The position numbers were made by a program, and so were the translations under genes. The notes beneath the pieces were generated by a model. It was not told the DNA's origin. It saw only the letters and a list, made by a program, of their open reading frames with translations, and searched no databases. 5,700 nucleotides of DNA from a virus. The first letter of the stretch is position 1; each line of letters starts with the position of its first letter. The DNA is taken from positions 1 to 5,700 of IMG/VR virus record IMGVR_UViG_3300050014_000428; one strand, given 5' to 3'. This document shows positions 513-5,700 of the stretch, one piece after another.

Positions 513-815
513 ATGCCAGCATTTCTGATACCGGCGATTGCCGGGGCCTTGTTGTCAGTTGCCGCGTCTTTGGTCGGGCGCATTATTGTGGCCTTGGGAA
601 TGGGGCTTGTGGCCTACAGTGGCATCAATACCGCATTGTCATATTTCCAGACTACATTTACGAATGCGATGGGCGGGGCCGGGGCTACGCTGGCGGGTAT
701 GTGCGGCGTTCTTCAGTTGGACACATGCTTGGCTATTTTCACGGCGGCGGCTCTGGCCAAGTTGGCGATTGCTGGTGCATCATCGGGCACCATTAAGAGG
801 CTGGCAATCAAGTAA
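513..815 (+). CDS. pVI-like small integral membrane protein (minor virion / assembly protein, comparable to the DUF2523-type proteins of other inoviruses)
   Basis: ATG 513 has AAGGA (502-506) 6 nt upstream and starts 9 nt after the pIII-like stop. The 100-aa product is very hydrophobic and Gly/Ala-rich with several TM-length stretches (AFLIPAIAGALLSVAASLVGRIIVALGMGLVAY; LDTCLAIFTAAALAKLAIAG). Its position between the pIII-like and pI genes matches Ff gVI. Confidence 0.7.
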   Translation: MPAFLIPAIAGALLSVAASLVGRIIVALGMGLVAYSGINTALSYFQTTFTNAMGGAGATLAGMCGVLQLDTCLAIFTAAALAKLAIAGASSGTIKRLAIK

Positions 816-1045
816 TGGCAAGGGTTTAGGACGTCGGGATAAGAGAAAAATGCAATAGCCATAGAAATATATGACAACTGTATAATCAGAATACGTATAT
901 GCCATAAATAAATATGACAAAAGAGTATGCAGGTTATCCGTGTGTCATAAAATAACATGCATTAGTAATAAATTGGCCATGCGGTTGTCATAAAAGAGAT
1001 ATGACAATATGGCATTGGTATATGTTTATGTCTTGAGGGCTTGCT
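816..1045. promoter_or_regulatory. AT-rich intergenic island carrying an array of TATGACA(A) repeats; putative operator/iteron and promoter region for the pI gene
   Basis: By hand count, 841-1020 is about 31% G+C, against about 60% in 541-600. ATATGACAA occurs at 869-877, 912-920 and 999-1007. Inverted cores are TGTCATA at 943-949 and TTGTCATA at 985-992. A ~20-nt direct repeat, gccataNaaNtaNatatgacaa, occurs at 858-877 and 901-920 (17/20 identical). A perfect TATAAT lies at 881-886. No credible ORF is present. Confidence 0.6.
985..1007. repeat. Perfect 8-bp inverted repeat TTGTCATA-n7-TATGACAA (candidate operator about 40-60 nt upstream of the pI start)
   Basis: Positions 985-992 pair base-for-base with 1000-1007, with spacer aaagaga. 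The left arm TTGTCA also resembles a -35 hexamer. Confidence 0.6.
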
Positions 1046-2092
1046 ATGATTACGCTAACGACTGGTCTCCCCGGTTCGGGGAAAACACTATTCACGATTG
1101 ATTCTGTGAAGCAATTGGCTGACAAAGAGAATAGGCCAGTGTTTTACTCGGGTATCAAGGATTTGGCATTACCATGGCATGAGATAGACGCTGAGAAGTG
1201 GATGGATTGCAGCGAGGGCGCGATTATCGTGATTGACGAATGCCAGCGGTTATTCAGGCCACGGGGTAACGGGTCGCTGGTTCCGGCCTATGTCTCGGAG
1301 TTGGAAACCCATCGCCACAAGGGGTTCGATATCTTCCTTGTGACTCAGCACCCCATGCTGATGGATGCTAATGTGAGAAGGCTAACCGAACGTCATAACC
1401 ATGTGGCGCGGCGGTTTGGGATGCAGCGTGCAACAGTACTCCAGTTCGAGTCGTGTAAAGAGCAACCTCTTTCTAAGCAGGAAGGGGCACAAAGGCTCGA
1501 ATGGAAGTACCCCAAGGCAGTTTTCGAGTATTACAAGTCGGCGGAAGTCCATACGGTCAAGCGGCGCATTCCGATGACGCTGTGGGTGCTGCTGTCCTTG
1601 CCTTTGCTGGTCGGCGGGATTATCTGGTATTTCGTGTCGTCACATTATCAAGATGGAAAGGTGGTCATAACCAAGTCACCCATTCCACCTGGACAAACAG
1701 TGGATATTTCGGGTAAGCAAGCGGCAGGGGGGAAGGATTCGGCTCAACACGTTCGTACCCCGGTGGAATATCTTGCGGCCTACACCCCGAGGGTAGCGGG
1801 GCTTGCCTACACTGCGTCGGTGTATGACGAGGTGACAAAGCCTGTGCGCGCTCCGGTGCCGGCGGGTACAGTGGTGGCGCGGGGCAAGTGCAAAGCCTAC
1901 ACCGATCAAGGCACCCCCCTTGCTATGGATCAAGCCTTGTGTATGCAGTTTGCCGCGAACGGGTTTTATCGAGAGTTCGACAATAAACCCGTTGGCAAGG
2001 CTATAGAAACGCGCAAGGATGCTCCTAACGTGGATAAGCCTGTGCCCTACACCCAAACAGTGCCCAATTCGGTGGAAGCGGCTGTGCTGTAG
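1046..2092 (+). CDS. Zot / pI-family filamentous-phage assembly ATPase
   Basis: ATG 1046 has GAGGG (1035-1039) 6 nt upstream. N-terminal Walker A GLPGSGKT (1064-1087), Walker-B-like IIVIDECQ, and the block THRHKGFDIFLVTQHP typical of the Zot/pI family. A single TM helix MTLWVLLSLPLLVGGIIWYFV (aa 177-197) is followed by a ~150-aa presumably periplasmic tail. Confidence 0.92.
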   Translation: MITLTTGLPGSGKTLFTIDSVKQLADKENRPVFYSGIKDLALPWHEIDAEKWMDCSEGAIIVIDECQRLFRPRGNGSLVPAYVSELETHRHKGFDIFLVTQHPMLMDANVRRLTERHNHVARRFGMQRATVLQFESCKEQPLSKQEGAQRLEWKYPKAVFEYYKSAEVHTVKRRIPMTLWVLLSLPLLVGGIIWYFVSSHYQDGKVVITKSPIPPGQTVDISGKQAAGGKDSAQHVRTPVEYLAAYTPRVAGLAYTASVYDEVTKPVRAPVPAGTVVARGKCKAYTDQGTPLAMDQALCMQFAANGFYREFDNKPVGKAIETRKDAPNVDKPVPYTQTVPNSVEAAVL

Positions 2093-2417: not shown

Positions 2418-2446
2418 TTGTTTTACACTTGACAAAAGTGTAAATT
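2418..2446 (+). promoter_or_regulatory. Candidate sigma70-type promoter for rep (-35 TTGTTT 2418-2423, 17-nt spacer, -10 TAAATT 2441-2446), overlapped by the inverted repeat
   Basis: Hexamer matches are 4/6 and 4/6 with ideal 17-nt spacing. A perfect TTGACA (2429-2434) also sits in the loop of the inverted repeat but has no usable -10 at 16-18 nt. Sequence inspection only. Confidence 0.3.
2422..2444. repeat. Perfect 9-bp inverted repeat TTTACACTT-gacaa-AAGTGTAAA (candidate operator or origin hairpin)
   Basis: All nine positions of 2422-2430 pair with 2436-2444. It lies about 95 nt upstream of the rep ATG and shares TGACAAAAG with repeat copy 915-923 in the AT island. Confidence 0.65.
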
Positions 2447-2536: not shown

Positions 2537-3664
2537 ATGATAACCTCAAATGCAACCAAGTTGCAAGACTCGCACATAGCGCCTTTCTACGTGAATCGCG
2601 GGCGAGTCAATCAGGCCCGGTATGCTGCGGCGGAATTCGAAGCGGCGCTCAAGGCCAAACCCCTACCTGATAAGTGCGTGGTTCTGGATTCCACCGTGCA
2701 GCGCGTGTTCCGTATGCGCAAGGGTATTCTGACCGCCAGCCGGCTGATAAACGCACGGCTCAAGACCTATATCGATCCAAAGGGCAAGCGGCGCAAGTGG
2801 GTGCCGGTCATGGTTACGCTGACCTATGCCGATAGTTGCGAGTGGGCACCGGATCACATTTCAAAATATATCCATACGGTTTCGGAGTGGGGGCGGCGCC
2901 GGGGCTACAAATTGCCTTATGTGTGGGTGATGGAACTGACGAAAAAAGGCCGTGCGCATTACCATGTCATATTCTGGATACCAGTGCATTTGTTCATTCC
3001 CAAGGCTGACGTTCAAGGTTGGTGGGTGCATGGGTCAAGTAACACGGTTCGGGCGCGCAACCCGTACGGGTATCTGTCGAAGTATGCCAGCAAGGCACTT
3101 GTGCATGATGACGAGGGCAAGCGGGTAGAGTTTCCCAGGGGTGCGCGTATTCACGGCATTGGCGGCGTCACGGCTGACGAAGCGGCAATTATTGCGTGGT
3201 GGAAGTTGCCCAAGGATTTGCGCCGGGGGGACGAGGGTTCGTGCAAATGGCGGCGACACAAGGGTGGCGGGTGGGTGTGCATTGAGGGGGACGCGCGCGG
3301 CGAAATATACGTGTGTAACTGGGGGCTGTCCGCGATCAACGTCAAGGCGAAGCAAGTGCGGCTCGTTGAAAAGTCGAGCCGTGAGGACTGGGACGCGGGG
3401 GCTACTTTTGGGCGGGACTGGGCTTCTTTGGTGGCGGCAACGGCTTCGGCGAACTATGCCGCCGGTCAGGCAGCGGGTGCGGCTGCTGTGGCGTCAATAC
3501 AAACATATCGGCGGTCCTGGATTTGGCAAGGCGGGGGGCCGGGGTTCGTACATCCGACTGATGTGCCCATGAGTGAAGGATTGTTTCCAGGAGATCAGCA
3601 AGGCTTAGACCGTTTCGTGCAGCTTGTGTTTTCAACACCAGATGCATCTCAGGGGCAACCTTAA
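2537..3664 (+). CDS. Rolling-circle replication initiator (HUH endonuclease superfamily, two-tyrosine type; gII-equivalent)
   Basis: RCR motif I VMVTLTY (about 2807-2827); HUH motif AHYHVIFW (HYHVIF = 2957-2974); motif III YGYLSKYASK (3065-3094) with two Tyr spaced Y-x-x-x-Y, closely resembling the phiX174 gpA active site YVAKYVNK. I prefer ATG 2537 (GGTGA 2528-2532 upstream) over the ORF-track TTG 2471, which sits in a hairpin loop. The last ~87 aa (from about 3402) are low-complexity and overlap a minus-strand ORF. Confidence 0.9.
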   Translation: MITSNATKLQDSHIAPFYVNRGRVNQARYAAAEFEAALKAKPLPDKCVVLDSTVQRVFRMRKGILTASRLINARLKTYIDPKGKRRKWVPVMVTLTYADSCEWAPDHISKYIHTVSEWGRRRGYKLPYVWVMELTKKGRAHYHVIFWIPVHLFIPKADVQGWWVHGSSNTVRARNPYGYLSKYASKALVHDDEGKRVEFPRGARIHGIGGVTADEAAIIAWWKLPKDLRRGDEGSCKWRRHKGGGWVCIEGDARGEIYVCNWGLSAINVKAKQVRLVEKSSREDWDAGATFGRDWASLVAATASANYAAGQAAGAAAVASIQTYRRSWIWQGGGPGFVHPTDVPMSEGLFPGDQQGLDRFVQLVFSTPDASQGQP

Positions 3665-3695
3665 CGGTTTTCCAGAGGTTCATTTTATTAGACAT
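3402..3695 (-). CDS. Putative ribbon-helix-helix (Arc/Mnt/CopG-like) transcriptional regulator, antisense to the 3' end of rep
   Basis: ATG at 3695 (minus) has AAGGA 8 nt upstream (complement of 3704-3708). The N-terminus NLWKTVKVAPEMHLVLKTQAARNGLSLADLLETILHSW fits the RHH pattern: a beta-strand with alternating hydrophobics, then P-E..LK..A..NG.S....LL..I, comparable with Mnt FNFRMPMEVREKLKFRAEANGRSMNSELLQIV. The C-terminal ~45 aa are Pro-rich and look like read-through forced by the overlapping rep frame. Confidence 0.5.
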   Translation of the reverse strand: MSNKMNLWKTVKVAPEMHLVLKTQAARNGLSLADLLETILHSWAHQSDVRTPAPRLAKSRTADMFVLTPQQPHPLPDRRHSSPKPLPPPKKPSPAQK

Positions 3696-3790
3696 GCAGA
3701 AATTCCTTGACGTGGAAAAGTTTAAAGGTGTAAGGTTCGTGCCGTCACGAATCGTTCCACAAATAGCTTAATACACCGGAAGGTAAAAAA
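3696..3790. promoter_or_regulatory. Divergent control region between the RHH ORF (-) and the SSB/structural operon (+), with palindrome TTCGTGccgtCACGAA (3736-3751)
   Basis: Plus-strand candidate promoter: TTGACG 3707-3712, 18-nt spacer, TAAGGT 3731-3736. Minus-strand candidate: -35 GTGACG (complement of 3743-3748), 16-nt spacer, -10 TTTAAA (3721-3726). The perfect 6+6-bp palindrome with a 4-nt spacer starts at the last base of the plus -10 and covers the minus -35. Confidence 0.35.
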
Positions 3791-4087
3791 ATGCAAGCGA
3801 CCATGATAGGCGTCACGCGTATGTCGGGAATTGGCAAGGAAAGCAAGGCGAAGTATGATATGACAAGGGCACTTATTCTCAACCCGATCGCGCCGTTTGA
3901 AAAAGAAAACTTCAAGCGGGAGGGGTTCGGGTTTGAAGTGATTGAGGTCGAAATGTCGGCGGACTGTTTGCCGTTCTTCGCGGTGCAAAAATTTCCGCTT
4001 GCGGGCAATTTCGACGTGGTGAATGAGGTGCGGGGCGGCAAGCTGGCACCCGTGATTGTCGGCATGGTCGCGTCGAAGGCTGCCTAA
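3791..4087 (+). CDS. gV-like ssDNA-binding protein (assigned mainly by position, size and loose similarity)
   Basis: ATG 3791 has GGAAGG (3778-3783) 7 nt upstream. The 98-aa product sits directly downstream of rep and upstream of the coat module. VTRMSGIGKESKAKYDMTRALIL loosely parallels Ff gVp TTRSGVSRQGKPYSLNEQLCYV. Its stop overlaps the next start (TAATG, 4085-4089). Confidence 0.6.
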   Translation: MQATMIGVTRMSGIGKESKAKYDMTRALILNPIAPFEKENFKREGFGFEVIEVEMSADCLPFFAVQKFPLAGNFDVVNEVRGGKLAPVIVGMVASKAA

Positions 4088-4326
4088 TGATTTGCGCGAC
4101 GTACTCCGCTACGGGCGAAGTGCTGGTCGTGCTTCCTGCGCCCCCGGATATTTCAGGGTGTGCGCTACTTATTCCGACTGCGGCAGACCAAGCGAACTAC
4201 CCGTTTTCTTTGTCTGCTGCGGACGGTTCAGCGGTGGCATTTGCCATCGTTCTTGTGTGGGGCGCGGGTTTTGCGGGGCGAGCCTGTATTCGTGCGCTTT
4301 TTTTAGGCGGTGTTTCTAGTGAATAA
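4087..4326 (+). CDS. Hypothetical small membrane protein occupying the gVII/gIX position (possible minor virion or assembly protein)
   Basis: ATG 4087 is coupled to the SSB stop (TAATG), and its end overlaps the coat-gene GTG by 8 nt, so the genes are tightly packed like an operon. It has a hydrophobic segment SAVAFAIVLVWGAGFAG followed by R. The competing frame 4056-4319 is Arg/Cys-rich and looks non-coding. Confidence 0.5.
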   Translation: MICATYSATGEVLVVLPAPPDISGCALLIPTAADQANYPFSLSAADGSAVAFAIVLVWGAGFAGRACIRALFLGGVSSE

Positions 4327-4489
4327 AATCTATAGTGTTCTGTTGTTCGTTCTGCCCATTTCGGCTTTTGCGGCTGTTGATGTTACCGCCATTACGTCGG
4401 TTTTGGCTGACGTCGCGCTGGTTTCGGCTGCTGTCTTTGGCGTTTATGTCGCCATCAAGGCGTCGAAGTTCATCCGCCACGCTCTCTAA
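4319..4489 (+). CDS. Major coat protein (pVIII-like) precursor, 56 aa; not in the supplied ORF track
   Basis: GTG 4319 has AGGCGG (4305-4310) 8 nt upstream. Translation: MNKIYSVLLFVLPISAFA / AVDVTAITSVLADVALVSAAVFGVYVAIKASKFIRHAL. This gives a signal peptide with an A-F-A cleavage motif, then a 38-aa mature peptide with an acidic N-terminus (2 Asp), a hydrophobic core and a basic C-terminus (K,K,R,H), which is the textbook inovirus coat layout. Stop TAA 4487-4489, followed by a terminator as after Ff gVIII. Confidence 0.8.
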   Translation: MNKIYSVLLFVLPISAFAAVDVTAITSVLADVALVSAAVFGVYVAIKASKFIRHAL

Positions 4490-4622: not shown

Positions 4623-5700
4623 GGCGGCTTTTTCTTTGCTTTCTCTTTGGCGTGCTTCTCGTTGGTGTGCCGATGCTTGCGCGTGCTGAAACTATTGCTG
4701 CGACCTATAACGGTACGGCGGTCGCGGTTGCTGGTGGTTCGCCAATTACCTATGGGGGTATTGGTTTGCAGGGAGCGTTTTCGTCTGCGGATGCGGCGTG
4801 CAATTCGCTTGTTGCGGGTTCTCACGGTGATTCGGTTCCGGGCCCTCCTGCTAGTGGTTATATGTCGGTAAGTTTTCTATGCAAAAGTGCTGCGGGGGCG
4901 ACTGTGGTGGGTGCGCAAGCTAATTTTAGTTGTATACCGCCATCCGTTTCTACGGCTAGCTATTGCAAAATTCCGGCGGGTTATTCCTGTCCGGGTGGTC
5001 AGAACTGGACGCTCGCGGGTTCTAGTTGTTCTCGACCGGATTGTGTTGCGCCGCAAGTGCGTGATTCTGCGACTGGTGTTTGTAATGCGCCTGCGTGTCC
5101 TGTTGCGGGTACTACGGTCGGCGCGGTAGGTCAGATTTCTAGCGGTTTGGGTCAGATAGGCGGTGCGGGCACGATTTGCATTTCGTCTTGTGTGGTTTCG
5201 CCGTCGGGTGGTTGTGAAAGTGTTCATAACACTGCGGGGTGGAAATACTTTTGTCATGGTCCTTTTGTTGTTACTGGCACGAGTTGCACGGGTGCGGATG
5301 TTGCTGTGCCTCCGACTGATCCGGCTTATAAATGCGCGCAACAGGGTATGCAATCGGGTACGGTTAATGGCGCTGTGGTGTGTGTTCCTGCGGATACGAC
5401 CCAACAAACTAAGCCGGAAACTGACGTTAAAACACCGGGCACCGGGCCGGCAGCGACTGATAATTCAACGGCAACCACGGTCTGTACGGGGGATGGTTCT
5501 TGTACGACGACGACGATAACTACGACAACGCAAGGTGGATCGGGGCCGGGGGGGACGGGGCCGGGTTCGACTACCAGTCCGCCGACTACTGATGTCAAGA
5601 CTGAGCCGAAAACAACCTTTTGTGCGGAACATCCAACGGATTCGACGTGTAAAGCTGCTGATAGCACATTTCAAGGGTCATGCGGTGCGGGGATTAGTGG
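4601..5700 (+). CDS. pIII-like minor coat / adsorption protein, N-terminal part (runs off the window end and continues at 1-503; ~491 aa in total)
   Basis: The frame (position mod 3 = 2) has no stop from 4490 to the window end. It is absent from the ORF track because it never terminates in the window. ATG 4601 gives MVDFQRVGRLFLCFLFGVLLVGVPMLARA / ETIAATYNG, a Sec-type signal peptide with a basic n-region, hydrophobic core and A-R-A site. The mature part is Cys-rich and carries a Thr/Gly/Pro linker TTTTITTTTQGGSGPGGTGPGSTTSPPTT (5504-5590). 973 nt plus 503 nt equals 492 codons, so the frame is continuous over the junction. Alternative starts are ATG 4571, GTG 4652 and ATG 4673. Confidence 0.8.
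   Translation, partial: MVDFQRVGRLFLCFLFGVLLVGVPMLARAETIAATYNGTAVAVAGGSPITYGGIGLQGAFSSADAACNSLVAGSHGDSVPGPPASGYMSVSFLCKSAAGATVVGAQANFSCIPPSVSTASYCKIPAGYSCPGGQNWTLAGSSCSRPDCVAPQVRDSATGVCNAPACPVAGTTVGAVGQISSGLGQIGGAGTICISSCVVSPSGGCESVHNTAGWKYFCHGPFVVTGTSCTGADVAVPPTDPAYKCAQQGMQSGTVNGAVVCVPADTTQQTKPETDVKTPGTGPAATDNSTATTVCTGDGSCTTTTITTTTQGGSGPGGTGPGSTTSPPTTDVKTEPKTTFCAEHPTDSTCKAADSTFQGSCGAGIS
5574..5700. repeat. Terminal direct repeat, copy 2 (identical to 1-127)
   Basis: Same 127-nt string as the window start. It lies inside the pIII-like coding frame, so it is a circular-permutation or assembly overlap (or a tandem unit), not an att site. Confidence 0.95.

Follow-up and report, generated by a model that had tools for sequence, protein, structure and literature searches.

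Gene content of the locus

The analysed window comprises 5,700 nt of viral DNA (IMG/VR record IMGVR_UViG_3300050014_000428), and its positions 1-127 are identical to positions 5574-5700, which points to a circular assembly with a genome of 5573 nt. An identical 4085-bp contig (L006) comes from an independent sequencing run. The rep gene (2537-3664, plus strand) has its called ATG at 2537 and encodes a rolling-circle initiator of 375 residues (PF23343). The SSB gene (3791-4087, plus strand), coding for an RstB-like single-stranded-DNA-binding protein, is the first gene of a rightward operon. Between the two, an ORF of 97 codons occupies the minus strand (3402-3695, stop at 3402-3404), with its ATG at 3695 in the ORF listing of the window; we refer to it as the RHH gene, after the ribbon-helix-helix fold predicted for its product. 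All other ORFs in the genome could be assigned (Rep, SSB, coat, adsorption, DUF2523, Zot), and no adjacent minus-strand gene lies beside the RHH gene in the ORF listing of the window. A megablast search with the entire window retrieved nothing from GenBank phages, and an Rfam search found no family. The nearest Rep proteins in genomes share ~40% identity and belong to Chromatiaceae, Methyloglobulus and Sedimenticola.

The RHH ORF is intact, and a Shine-Dalgarno sequence AAGGA (3704-3708, minus strand) is located 8 nt upstream of its ATG, as described in the original prediction. The 263 nt of convergent overlap with rep (3402-3664) are likewise open in both frames, and RHH codon position 3 is paired with Rep codon position 2. 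Rep residues 289-375 are antisense to the RHH gene, and the Rep family profile places the end of the conserved Rep domain near residue 280 (~nt 3376), ahead of the overlap. The RHH product can be divided into a DNA-binding core (residues 8-46; 3558-3674, minus strand), a conserved C-terminal stretch and a variable tail. The conserved stretch, TPAP...TADMFVL (residues 47-67; 3495-3557, minus strand), contains the invariant residues Pro-52 and Asp-63 and is antisense to the Rep motif YRRSWIWQGGGPGFVHPTD. The tail (residues 68-97; 3405-3494, minus strand) is rich in Pro, Arg and Lys, carries a loosely recurring (H)DRR motif and is antisense to an Ala/Gly-rich part of Rep, so that both proteins indeed have the odd ends noted before, Pro-rich in RHH and Ala/Gly-rich in Rep.

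A predicted ribbon-helix-helix protein

We compared the 97-residue product to domain and structure collections. In single-sequence searches, all four Pfam matches were RHH families aligned over residues 9-46, every one of them below its gathering score. Omega_Repress (PF07764) was matched weakly by 14 of 14 family members, with a best E-value of 0.0011 and 17.1 bits against a cut-off of 33.3. With a family profile, omega (2bnw/1irq; E = 3.5e-4) and ParG (E = 0.038) were retrieved from the PDB. The omega core scored 93.8% in hhalign, with Lys-9, Thr-10, Val-11 and Lys-12 aligned to Lys-28, Thr-29, Val-30 and Arg-31 of omega, and 96.3% was reached with L018, a ParG-like protein that adjoins a ParA ATPase gene and is the nearest non-phage relative. 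In omega, Thr-29 and Arg-31 read the bases. No PHROG or NCBIfam entry matched the protein, and no Arc or CopG/RHH_1 Pfam model did so at E ≤ 1.

The core consists of a predicted strand (WKTVKV) with alternating polar and hydrophobic residues, helix 1 (residues 15-27), an NGLS turn of the Gly-x-Ser/Thr/Asn type and helix 2 (residues 32-46). Trp-8, Lys-9, Thr-10, Lys-12, Pro-15, His-18, Lys-22 and Trp-43 are invariant in our alignments, and Gly-29 of the Asn-28-Gly-29-Leu-30-Ser-31 turn between the helices is invariant or nearly so. An AlphaFold2 monomer model is extended over residues 8-14 and has helices at 15-27 and 32-46, with pLDDT values of 88-96 in the core. DSSP does not assign the β-strand in this model, as expected for a sheet that forms only in the dimer. 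The top Foldseek matches are nearly all RHH proteins, among them CopG, Arc, VapB, ORF56 and NikA, with TM scores of 0.7-0.8 normalised to the target; the small size of the domain keeps their E-values, all above 0.1, from reaching significance. The protein is thus predicted to be an RHH factor from Pfam, PDB profile and hhalign matches, with which the AlphaFold and Foldseek results agree. The kinship to Arc, Mnt and CopG that had been proposed for it stands as a likeness of fold, but sequence profiles place the nearest branch with omega and ParG rather than with Arc/Mnt, in line with the missing Arc and CopG Pfam matches.

Conservation among related genomes

The length of the RHH ORF alone is no more than expected by chance, and spurious minus-strand ORFs of 169 and 176 aa are also present in the window. 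We therefore looked to conservation as the evidence beyond chance, and we regard it as decisive. In a tblastn search with the 97-aa product, the same position was matched in eight of eight contigs fetched via Rep, with E-values of 1e-17 to 1e-24 and 48-64% identity, and 20 further called RHH proteins or loci were found besides these contigs. A word-indexed protein search with the 97-aa ORF had found nothing; the homologues came from exhaustive HMMER and profile searches. Homologues at the same site were found in 18 distinct genomes, in L059 and in the distant L066. The ORF is homologous and intact in ~20 related genomes, and the minus frame is uninterrupted and begins with ATG in all relatives examined. 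Purine-rich motifs occupy the Shine-Dalgarno site of the relatives' RHH genes too. Convergence with rep and divergence from the SSB operon, both seen in the window from the outset, are conserved, and this layout (Rep rightward, RHH leftward, SSB rightward) is common to ~20 distinct metagenomic inovirus genomes. An arrangement first taken for an unusual oddity is instead the norm for a clade.

The alternative would be that the ORF is an unexpressed shadow ORF, open by chance antisense to the G+C-rich rep gene. The region has a G+C content of 52-63%, the window holds longer spurious ORFs on the minus strand, and the gene calls of the closest relatives omit the RHH ORF, all of which this explanation would accommodate. 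It is at odds with the maintenance of the ATG and Shine-Dalgarno sequence in relatives, with separate gene calls for homologues in 20 other contigs, with the profile matches to RHH proteins and with the codon-position and substitution patterns reported below, which point to the minus frame. The comparative data rule it out, and we assign it practically no probability; they show that the RHH gene is real and under purifying selection.

Outside this group the gene was rarely encountered. A tblastn search of RHH against GenBank phages returned chance-level matches only (E ≥ 0.9), and RHH peptide patterns had no match in 185,579 species genomes or in the JGI metagenome collection. Rep-based scans covered 36 prophages and 80 metagenome loci, among which RHH was present in L059 and L066 only. 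On these results, no host can be assigned.

Selection in the overlap with rep

We analysed the overlap in the 16 genomes in which its context is intact. In all 16 it measures 101-263 nt, both frames are open and the relative frame is the same throughout; in the distant L066, it measures 146 nt. L020 and L022 were left out of these statistics, as their Rep-RHH junctions cross contig ends. The long open Rep frame was considered as evidence of selection and rejected: when synonymous codons of the RHH gene were shuffled, 10% of trials gave a Rep read-through that equalled or exceeded the real one (p = 0.10 for the window), and pooling the genomes, which are not independent, gave a Fisher-combined value of 0.13.

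Over 45 codons of the DNA-binding core in 18 sequences, variability at the three positions is 0.37/0.20/0.62 in the RHH frame, and the Rep frame over the same core has an anti-coding pattern (0.40/0.64/0.21). As a control, the Rep core read in the Rep frame gave the normal pattern (0.24/0.20/0.57). Counts of synonymous and nonsynonymous changes between close pairs follow the same trend: 8/0 in the RHH frame versus 0/8 in the Rep frame for L013/L014, 25/4 versus 2/27 for L020/L021 and 16/10 versus 2/24 for L008/L009. Across the core, selection thus acts on the RHH frame only. Among relatives, the Rep stop codon occupies six different places with respect to RHH, with a spread of ~33 codons, and the last ~35 residues of Rep are for this reason best regarded as a passenger of RHH codon choice.

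True dual coding, in which the Rep extension antisense to RHH would be functional and selection would maintain both frames, is an unlikely reading of these data. Rep does enter the RHH gene in 16 of 16 intact-context genomes with a constant relative frame, although a shared frame may be mere inheritance. Further indications come from RHH residues 47-67, opposite Rep residues ~320-340. In the subgroup formed by the window, L001, L003 and L007, variability in this stretch is evenly low (0.25/0.29/0.29), and identity is 0.59 in the Rep frame versus 0.52 in the RHH frame. RHH-synonymous change declines from 50% in the core to 33% at residues 47-67 and Rep-synonymous change rises from 8% to 21%, in pairs that are not independent. 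L004 has a copy of the Rep motif (YIWQGGAIGF...PF) outside the overlap, with stop codons in its antisense. Elsewhere the pattern speaks against two selected frames: Rep is anti-coding over the RHH core, where substitutions are nearly all nonsynonymous in Rep, the Rep stop codon shifts among relatives, the overlap length lies within the reach of synonymous shuffles, Rep tails of different subgroups cannot be aligned, and the L008/L009/L004 subgroup has no Rep-frame signal. The dual coding originally proposed is thus physically true in that both frames are open, but over the DNA-binding core selection operates in the RHH frame alone, and there is a hint of dual constraint at 3495-3557 only.

Candidate operators and promoters

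We aligned the RHH-SSB intergenic regions of the relatives and found their architecture to be conserved. This alignment revealed a set of 8-bp boxes that a generic repeat finder did not report. In the window, three tandem boxes of the GTGTAAAA type (GTGGAAAA, GTTTAAAG and GTGTAAGG; 3712-3735, plus strand) form a candidate operator with the consensus GTGT followed by a 4-bp A-rich spacer. An inverted box, GTTCCAC (complement of GTGGAAC; 3754-3760, minus strand), follows, and GTTACAC is found at the same place in relatives. The tandem boxes coincide with a candidate promoter that would drive the SSB and structural genes rightward (3707-3736, plus strand), composed of TTGACG (3707-3712), 18 nt and TAAGGT (3731-3736). 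Its -35 element and a TAAnnT hexamer are kept in relatives, with the boxes occupying the spacer and the -10 element. A weak candidate promoter for the RHH gene (3719-3748, minus strand), with GTGACG (3748 to 3743), 18 nt and TAAACT (3724 to 3719), is interleaved with the rightward one and covered by the boxes. Neither proposed promoter was flagged in a consensus promoter scan.

Two further boxes are located at the candidate rep promoter (2422-2446, plus strand), an exact inverted TTTACAC (2422-2428) and an exact GTGTAAA (2438-2444), 16 bp apart. The second overlaps the candidate -10 element TAAATT (2441-2446), and all relatives have AAAAGTGTAAATT at the rep -10 site, 17 nt downstream of TTGACC. 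Box pairs with 8-bp phasing occur almost only in the RHH-SSB intergenic region, and the expectation from shuffling is 0.01 per genome; 6 of 18 genomes are without a phased pair at a one-mismatch threshold. The apparent 219-nt intergenic region of L012 crosses a contig junction, and we read its internal repeat as a putative contig terminal repeat. In 36 related prophages that lack RHH there are no phased pairs and only four isolated exact boxes on the reverse strand. The boxes thus co-occur with the RHH gene, in a comparison confounded by phylogeny, as the box-less prophages are more distant and higher in G+C. Since the boxes overlap -10 elements, part of their conservation could reflect promoter sequence and not an operator.

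A proposed model for regulation by RHH

Taken together, the conserved gene, its predicted fold and the position of the boxes make it probable that RHH is a repressor that acts on the rep and SSB/structural promoters and regulates its own gene in a small episomal inovirus. The scheme that we infer, from box binding and promoter assignments to repression, immunity and an effect of convergent transcription, would run as follows. RHH dimers would bind the 8-bp-phased GTGT-AAAA boxes, three tandem and one inverted over the interleaved divergent RHH and SSB promoters and one or two over the -10 element of the rep promoter. Because the boxes lie over these promoters, binding would repress the SSB/structural/assembly operon, rep and the RHH gene itself. 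Repression would set a low-production carrier state and would probably confer immunity to related phages. The RHH gene would at some point have become placed tail-to-tail with rep and, as rep has no stop codon before it, translation of Rep would run 101-263 nt into RHH antisense, most of the resulting tail being a by-product whose length shifts with synonymous RHH codon choice. The arrangement probably serves to switch phage gene expression on and off.

The overlap itself may act as the regulator, with the RHH transcript acting as a long antisense RNA against the 3' portion of the rep mRNA, alongside or instead of the protein at the rep promoter. Colliding polymerases, or RNase III cutting the RNA duplex, would then limit Rep synthesis and read-through into the SSB operon. 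We consider this possible but doubtful. The convergent overlap is at least 101 nt in every genome, including L066, and a consensus scan of 3300-3900 found no intrinsic terminator on either strand that would separate RHH and rep. A precedent may be Xanthomonas phage cf, whose immunity, according to a brief account, reportedly uses RNA-RNA interactions together with a repressor protein (PMC8402870). The argument derives from layout alone, however, and the overlap involves the dispensable-looking 3' tail of rep rather than its start or ribosome-binding site, the usual target of antisense RNAs. The strong purifying selection on the protein also implies that RNA alone is not the function.

A more remote reading is that RHH is not a transcription regulator but an antitoxin, or a ParG-like centromere-binding partition adaptor of the episomal replicative form. 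Its nearest non-phage relative is encoded beside a ParA ATPase, omega and ParG each act in partition in addition to repression (PMC3130281, PMC9499535), and the tandem boxes resemble a small centromere. The conserved C-terminal TPxP...PDMFLV could also bind a partner, as the tails of RHH antitoxins do. However, there is no ParA or toxin gene in the 5573-nt genome, in which Zot is the sole ATPase, and only seven residues precede the predicted strand, compared to the long ATPase-contacting N-terminal tails of ParG and omega (PMC3130281). Moreover, the arrays have just 3-4 boxes and are placed exactly on promoters. We thus judge a partition or antitoxin role to be very improbable, and retain the autoregulated repressor as our preferred interpretation.

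An extended version would combine these elements into a three-layer switch that an integrase-less phage derives from a single gene of 300 nt: RHH on its boxes at the rep and the divergent promoters, its mRNA as antisense to rep, and functional peptides on both strands at 3495-3557 (the RHH C-terminal motif and IWQGGGPGF in Rep), the last of which would lock the two genes together. Such a switch would set a heritable choice between silent carriage and virion production; in this full form we find it quite unlikely.

To our knowledge, next to nothing has been established on how the many small non-integrating inoviruses of metagenomes are regulated. The locus provides a candidate clade-wide regulator with no match in PHROGs, NCBIfam or GenBank phages and none at threshold in Pfam, together with a concrete candidate operator and promoters that are directly testable. 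Gene callers missed the RHH gene in the closest relatives that we fetched, so that regulators of this kind have probably been under-annotated. The locus also offers a clean natural example of antisense overlap with an unambiguous comparative signal: one frame is selected, and the other grows or shrinks through synonymous changes in the selected one. A single short stretch is possibly constrained on both strands. Such an example is useful for the debate on the origin of antisense overlaps.

Comparison with known systems

We compared the RHH system to known repressors and partition proteins. The omega repressor (ParB of pSM19035; PF07764; 1irq, 2bnw) shares the RHH fold and is the best sequence match. 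It binds contiguous heptad arrays, direct and inverted, over promoters (PMC9499535), and it is described as repressing genes of replication control and maintenance on a global scale (PMC9499535; PMC10534721). Its heptads are 7 bp long, whereas the unit here, GTGTAAAA, has 8 bp. Omega has a ParA partner (delta) and a long N-terminal tail; RHH has neither and instead carries a conserved C-terminal extension, and its replicon is a filamentous phage with the gene antisense to rep.

ParG of TP228 (1p94) has the same fold and is the second-best profile match. It is autoregulatory, and its operator/centromere consists of 4-bp boxes with regular 4-bp AT-rich spacers in direct and inverted orientation, each bound by one dimer (PMC3130281). 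This 8-bp geometry is that of the GTGT+AAAA boxes described here (three tandem and one inverted). ParG boxes read ACTC and number 8-12 per array, however, compared to GTGT and 3-4 per array here, and ParG contacts the ParF ATPase via a flexible N-terminal tail, neither of which was found here.

Among filamentous phages, the episomal Pseudomonas inovirus PMBT54 has on its minus strand ORF13, annotated as an omega-like RHH protein, for which the relevant passage suggests copy or maintenance control (PMC10534721). That passage numbers ORF13 last, after the morphogenesis genes, and makes no mention of an overlap with rep. A tblastn search with the window protein detected no sequence relation to any GenBank phage record. 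RstR of CTXphi and Pf4r of Pf4 are helix-turn-helix rather than RHH proteins and are transcribed opposite to the rep operon, with their genes upstream of rep, divergent and free of coding overlap. Here, in contrast, the gene is downstream of rep, convergent with it, overlapping its 3' end and divergent from the SSB operon. RstR and Pf4r, the latter a P2 repressor C-like protein, are small phage repressors with control over the activity of the rep promoter as well as over immunity and superinfection (PMC8402870).

The RHH fold is also shared with CopG of pMV158 and with Arc and Mnt of P22, CopG and Arc chains reaching TM scores of 0.70-0.76 normalised to the target. The copG gene is co-transcribed upstream of repB, and its operator is pseudo-palindromic rather than built of phased direct repeats. 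CopG is the repressor half of a copy control that pairs a repressor with an antisense RNA in a rolling-circle replicon, and in functional terms this copy control comes nearest to what the present layout suggests.

Results

The minus-strand ORF at 3402-3695 corresponds to the original description: it encodes 97 amino acids from an ATG with AAGGA 8 nt upstream and shares 263 nt with rep, a stretch in which neither frame contains a stop. ORF length alone is no evidence for a gene here, because the window also contains longer, spurious minus-strand ORFs. In all 8 contigs obtained via Rep proteins 52-60% identical to the window Rep, a translated match to the 97-amino acid product (E = 1e-17 to 1e-24) occupies the corresponding position. 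In each of them the minus frame is uninterrupted and starts with ATG. An exhaustive HMMER search together with a profile search recovered 20 called proteins of 67-102 amino acids, and IMG/VR supplied additional genomes encoding the ribbon-helix-helix (RHH) protein. The order Rep→ ←RHH, SSB→ is common to all contexts of the homologues found, and in the 16 genomes with intact context the Rep/RHH overlap spans 101-263 nt in one constant relative frame. The same layout is present in a distant, G+C-rich contig (L066, 587-1914), with Rep at 587-1435 (plus strand), a 73-amino acid RHH at 1511-1290 (minus strand, 146-nt overlap with Rep), and an SSB-like gene after RHH; the arrangement is thus older than the clade of the window.

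In the overlap, the third RHH codon position pairs with the second Rep position, and the two frames therefore predict opposite locations of variation. Variability at RHH positions 1/2/3 is 0.37/0.20/0.62 (45 ungapped codons, W8-P52, 18 sequences), and the non-overlapping Rep core, analyzed as a control, shows a normal Rep-frame pattern (0.24/0.20/0.57). Between the related loci L013 and L014, all 8 differing sites are synonymous for RHH and nonsynonymous for Rep. Synonymous/nonsynonymous counts are 25/4 in the RHH frame versus 2/27 in the Rep frame for the pair L020/L021, and 16/10 versus 2/24 for L008/L009. The close-pair substitutions unambiguously favor the RHH frame. A chance ORF is ruled out by the conservation of homologues together with the codon-position and close-pair patterns.

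We assigned the fold from several lines of evidence. A single-sequence Pfam search returned four matches, all to RHH families over residues 9-46 and each sub-threshold, and Omega_Repress (PF07764) was matched by 14 of 14 members tested. A profile of the RHH homologues identified the omega repressor of pSM19035 in the PDB (2bnw, 1irq; E = 3.5e-4), followed by the partition protein ParG of plasmid TP228 (0.038), and hhalign aligned the omega core at 93.8%, placing K9-T10-V11-K12 opposite omega K28-T29-V30-R31. The AlphaFold model, built from a 17-sequence alignment, has a mean pLDDT of 77 (88-96 in the core) and shows an extended N-terminus, then helices 15-27 and 32-46 joined by the turn NGLS. 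Its best Foldseek matches are nearly all RHH proteins (CopG, Arc, VapB, ORF56, NikA, MatP C-domain), with target-normalized TM-scores of 0.7-0.8 and E-values that are not significant. The sole homologue found outside the inovirus clade is a ParG-like, 102-amino acid protein with a C-terminal RHH (hhalign 96%), encoded after a ParA ATPase gene on a 116-kb IMG/VR viral contig (L018, 4177-5126). Together, these results make the RHH assignment sound. The Arc/Mnt-like repressor originally proposed thus holds for the fold but not for the branch, as the profile matches place omega/ParG nearest. No match was found in PHROG or NCBIfam and no relative among GenBank phages, and the family belongs to no curated model.

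Past the core, a conserved C-terminal stretch reads (G)VxTPxP...(T)PD(M/L)F(L)V, in which P52 and D63 never vary, and a variable, basic, proline-rich tail follows. The conserved peptide (residues 50-67, 3495-3548) could serve in contacts between dimers or with a partner, or else the Rep frame could impose part of its conservation.

The Rep family profile and a cross-clade alignment both stop near residue 280, and the Rep residues beyond are antisense to the RHH gene. Relative to the RHH gene, the genomes place the Rep stop at six different sites. In most relatives it is made by RHH codons L21-K22, read from the sequence as NTT/NTC followed by A..; the window has TTG-AAA there, and Rep continues for 10 codons to GTT-AAG (V11-K12). 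The length of Rep has therefore shifted through a synonymous change in RHH. Shuffling synonymous RHH codons of the window gave an overlap of at least the observed length in 10% of trials (Fisher-combined p = 0.13 across genomes that are not independent). Because the stop position varies and shuffles reach the observed overlap, most of the Rep tail is a passenger.

The exception is 3495-3557 (RHH 47-67, Rep YRRSWIWQGGGPGFVHPTD). In the subgroup of the window, variability here is low and even at the three codon positions, and identity in the Rep frame equals or exceeds that in the RHH frame; the share of RHH-synonymous change falls and that of Rep-synonymous change rises, among pairs that are not independent. 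L004, a contig of another subgroup, has a non-overlapping copy of this Rep motif whose antisense has decayed. Both frames are open, as first envisaged, and 3495-3557 gives a hint, not proof, of true dual constraint; elsewhere the passenger tail and the RHH-frame substitution pattern speak against it. In L004 (1690-2016), Rep, of 401 amino acids, has a complete, non-overlapping usual tail, YIWQGGAIGF...ETPF, with stop codons in its antisense; beyond this old tail, Rep continues into an L008/L009-type RHH gene, as if a module had been swapped in while the old tail stayed in place.

Alignment of the RHH-SSB intergenic region revealed a candidate operator and promoter architecture common to the relatives: a -35 TTGAC(G) is followed by two or three tandem 8-bp boxes (consensus GTGTAAAA) and a conserved TAAnnT, and 26-45 bp beyond lies GTTACAC, an inverted copy of the box. 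In the window these are TTGACG (3707-3712), GTGGAAAA, GTTTAAAG, and GTGTAAGG (3712-3735), TAAGGT (3731-3736), and GTTCCAC (3754-3760). Box pairs exactly 8 bp apart are nearly confined to this region in each genome (0.01 expected per shuffled genome), and 12 of 18 genomes contain such pairs at one mismatch. The RHH gene could be transcribed from a minus-strand candidate promoter, GTGACG-18-TAAACT (3748→3719), with a leader of ~17 nt that includes the Shine-Dalgarno sequence; the leftward and rightward candidates could then interleave beneath the boxes. A consensus promoter scanner called neither intergenic candidate. In every relative the region preceding rep contains TTGACC-17-TAAATT, whose -10 lies within AAAAGTGTAAATT, and the window has an exact box (2438-2444) and, 16 bp from it, an exact inverted box (2422-2428). 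Thirty-six related prophages without RHH, which are also more distant and thus confound the comparison, have no phased boxes and nearly no exact boxes near rep.

Other features were noted around rep. In all relatives, a nearly invariant motif, GGGGCTTGTCTCTTTTACAACAA (2348-2370 in the window), lies upstream of rep and follows a G+C-rich hairpin (~2320-2347 in the window); this motif is a candidate for the plus-strand origin or the site nicked by Rep. The rep leader (2460-2536) contains a conserved G+C hairpin, GGCCCGCTTGGCGGCGGGCC, and two direct repeats of CAAACAAACGGTG around a second hairpin, CTGGTGACTAGCCAGC, the second repeat providing the rep ribosome-binding site. All relatives share this design with different sequences, and it may serve translational control or as a minus-strand origin.

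A perfect 127-nt terminal direct repeat (1-127 = 5574-5700) identifies the window as a circular assembly of a 5573-nt genome, and an independent run yielded an identical 4085-bp contig (L006). The genome encodes a DUF2523 pVI-like protein (513-815), Zot (1046-2092), Rep (PF23343; 2537-3664, plus strand), an RstB-like SSB (3791-4087), a 79-amino acid protein (4087-4326), the major coat protein (4310-4489), and a large adsorption-protein ORF spanning the contig junction. Between the DUF2523 gene and zot lies an A+T-rich gap without an ORF (816-1045, 38-40% G+C), where relatives have a small ORF; it contains two ATCCGTGTGTCATAAAA-like sequences (936-952, 979-995), together with long, imperfect inverted repeats that extend into 626-665. 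The 7.6-kb contig L003 has two additional minus-strand genes (5378-6240; 202 and 83 amino acids, no Pfam match) in the zot-rep interval, which may form an additional regulatory or accessory module.

Discussion

We propose that RHH would act as an autoregulated repressor, coating the box arrays and thereby silencing both the SSB/structural operon and transcription from the rep promoter. Such repression would keep the episome at low output and would probably confer immunity. Interference or antisense effects may also arise from convergent transcription over the overlap.

Among phages and plasmids, RHH repressors are already well known. Two inovirus repressors, RstR and Pf4r, are helix-turn-helix proteins whose genes lie upstream of rep. 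Both have been studied and repress rep promoters (PMC8402870). An omega-like RHH is annotated in inovirus PMBT54, where it is numbered last in the genome, after the morphogenesis genes (PMC10534721). New here are an RHH sequence family outside all curated models, an RHH gene downstream of and antisense to rep with a conserved coding overlap, and a system of 8-bp boxes at two candidate promoter regions. These boxes differ from omega operators, which are contiguous heptads (PMC9499535), and have the same geometry as ParG operators, in which a 4-bp box and a 4-bp A/T spacer, direct and inverted, bind one dimer per box (PMC3130281).
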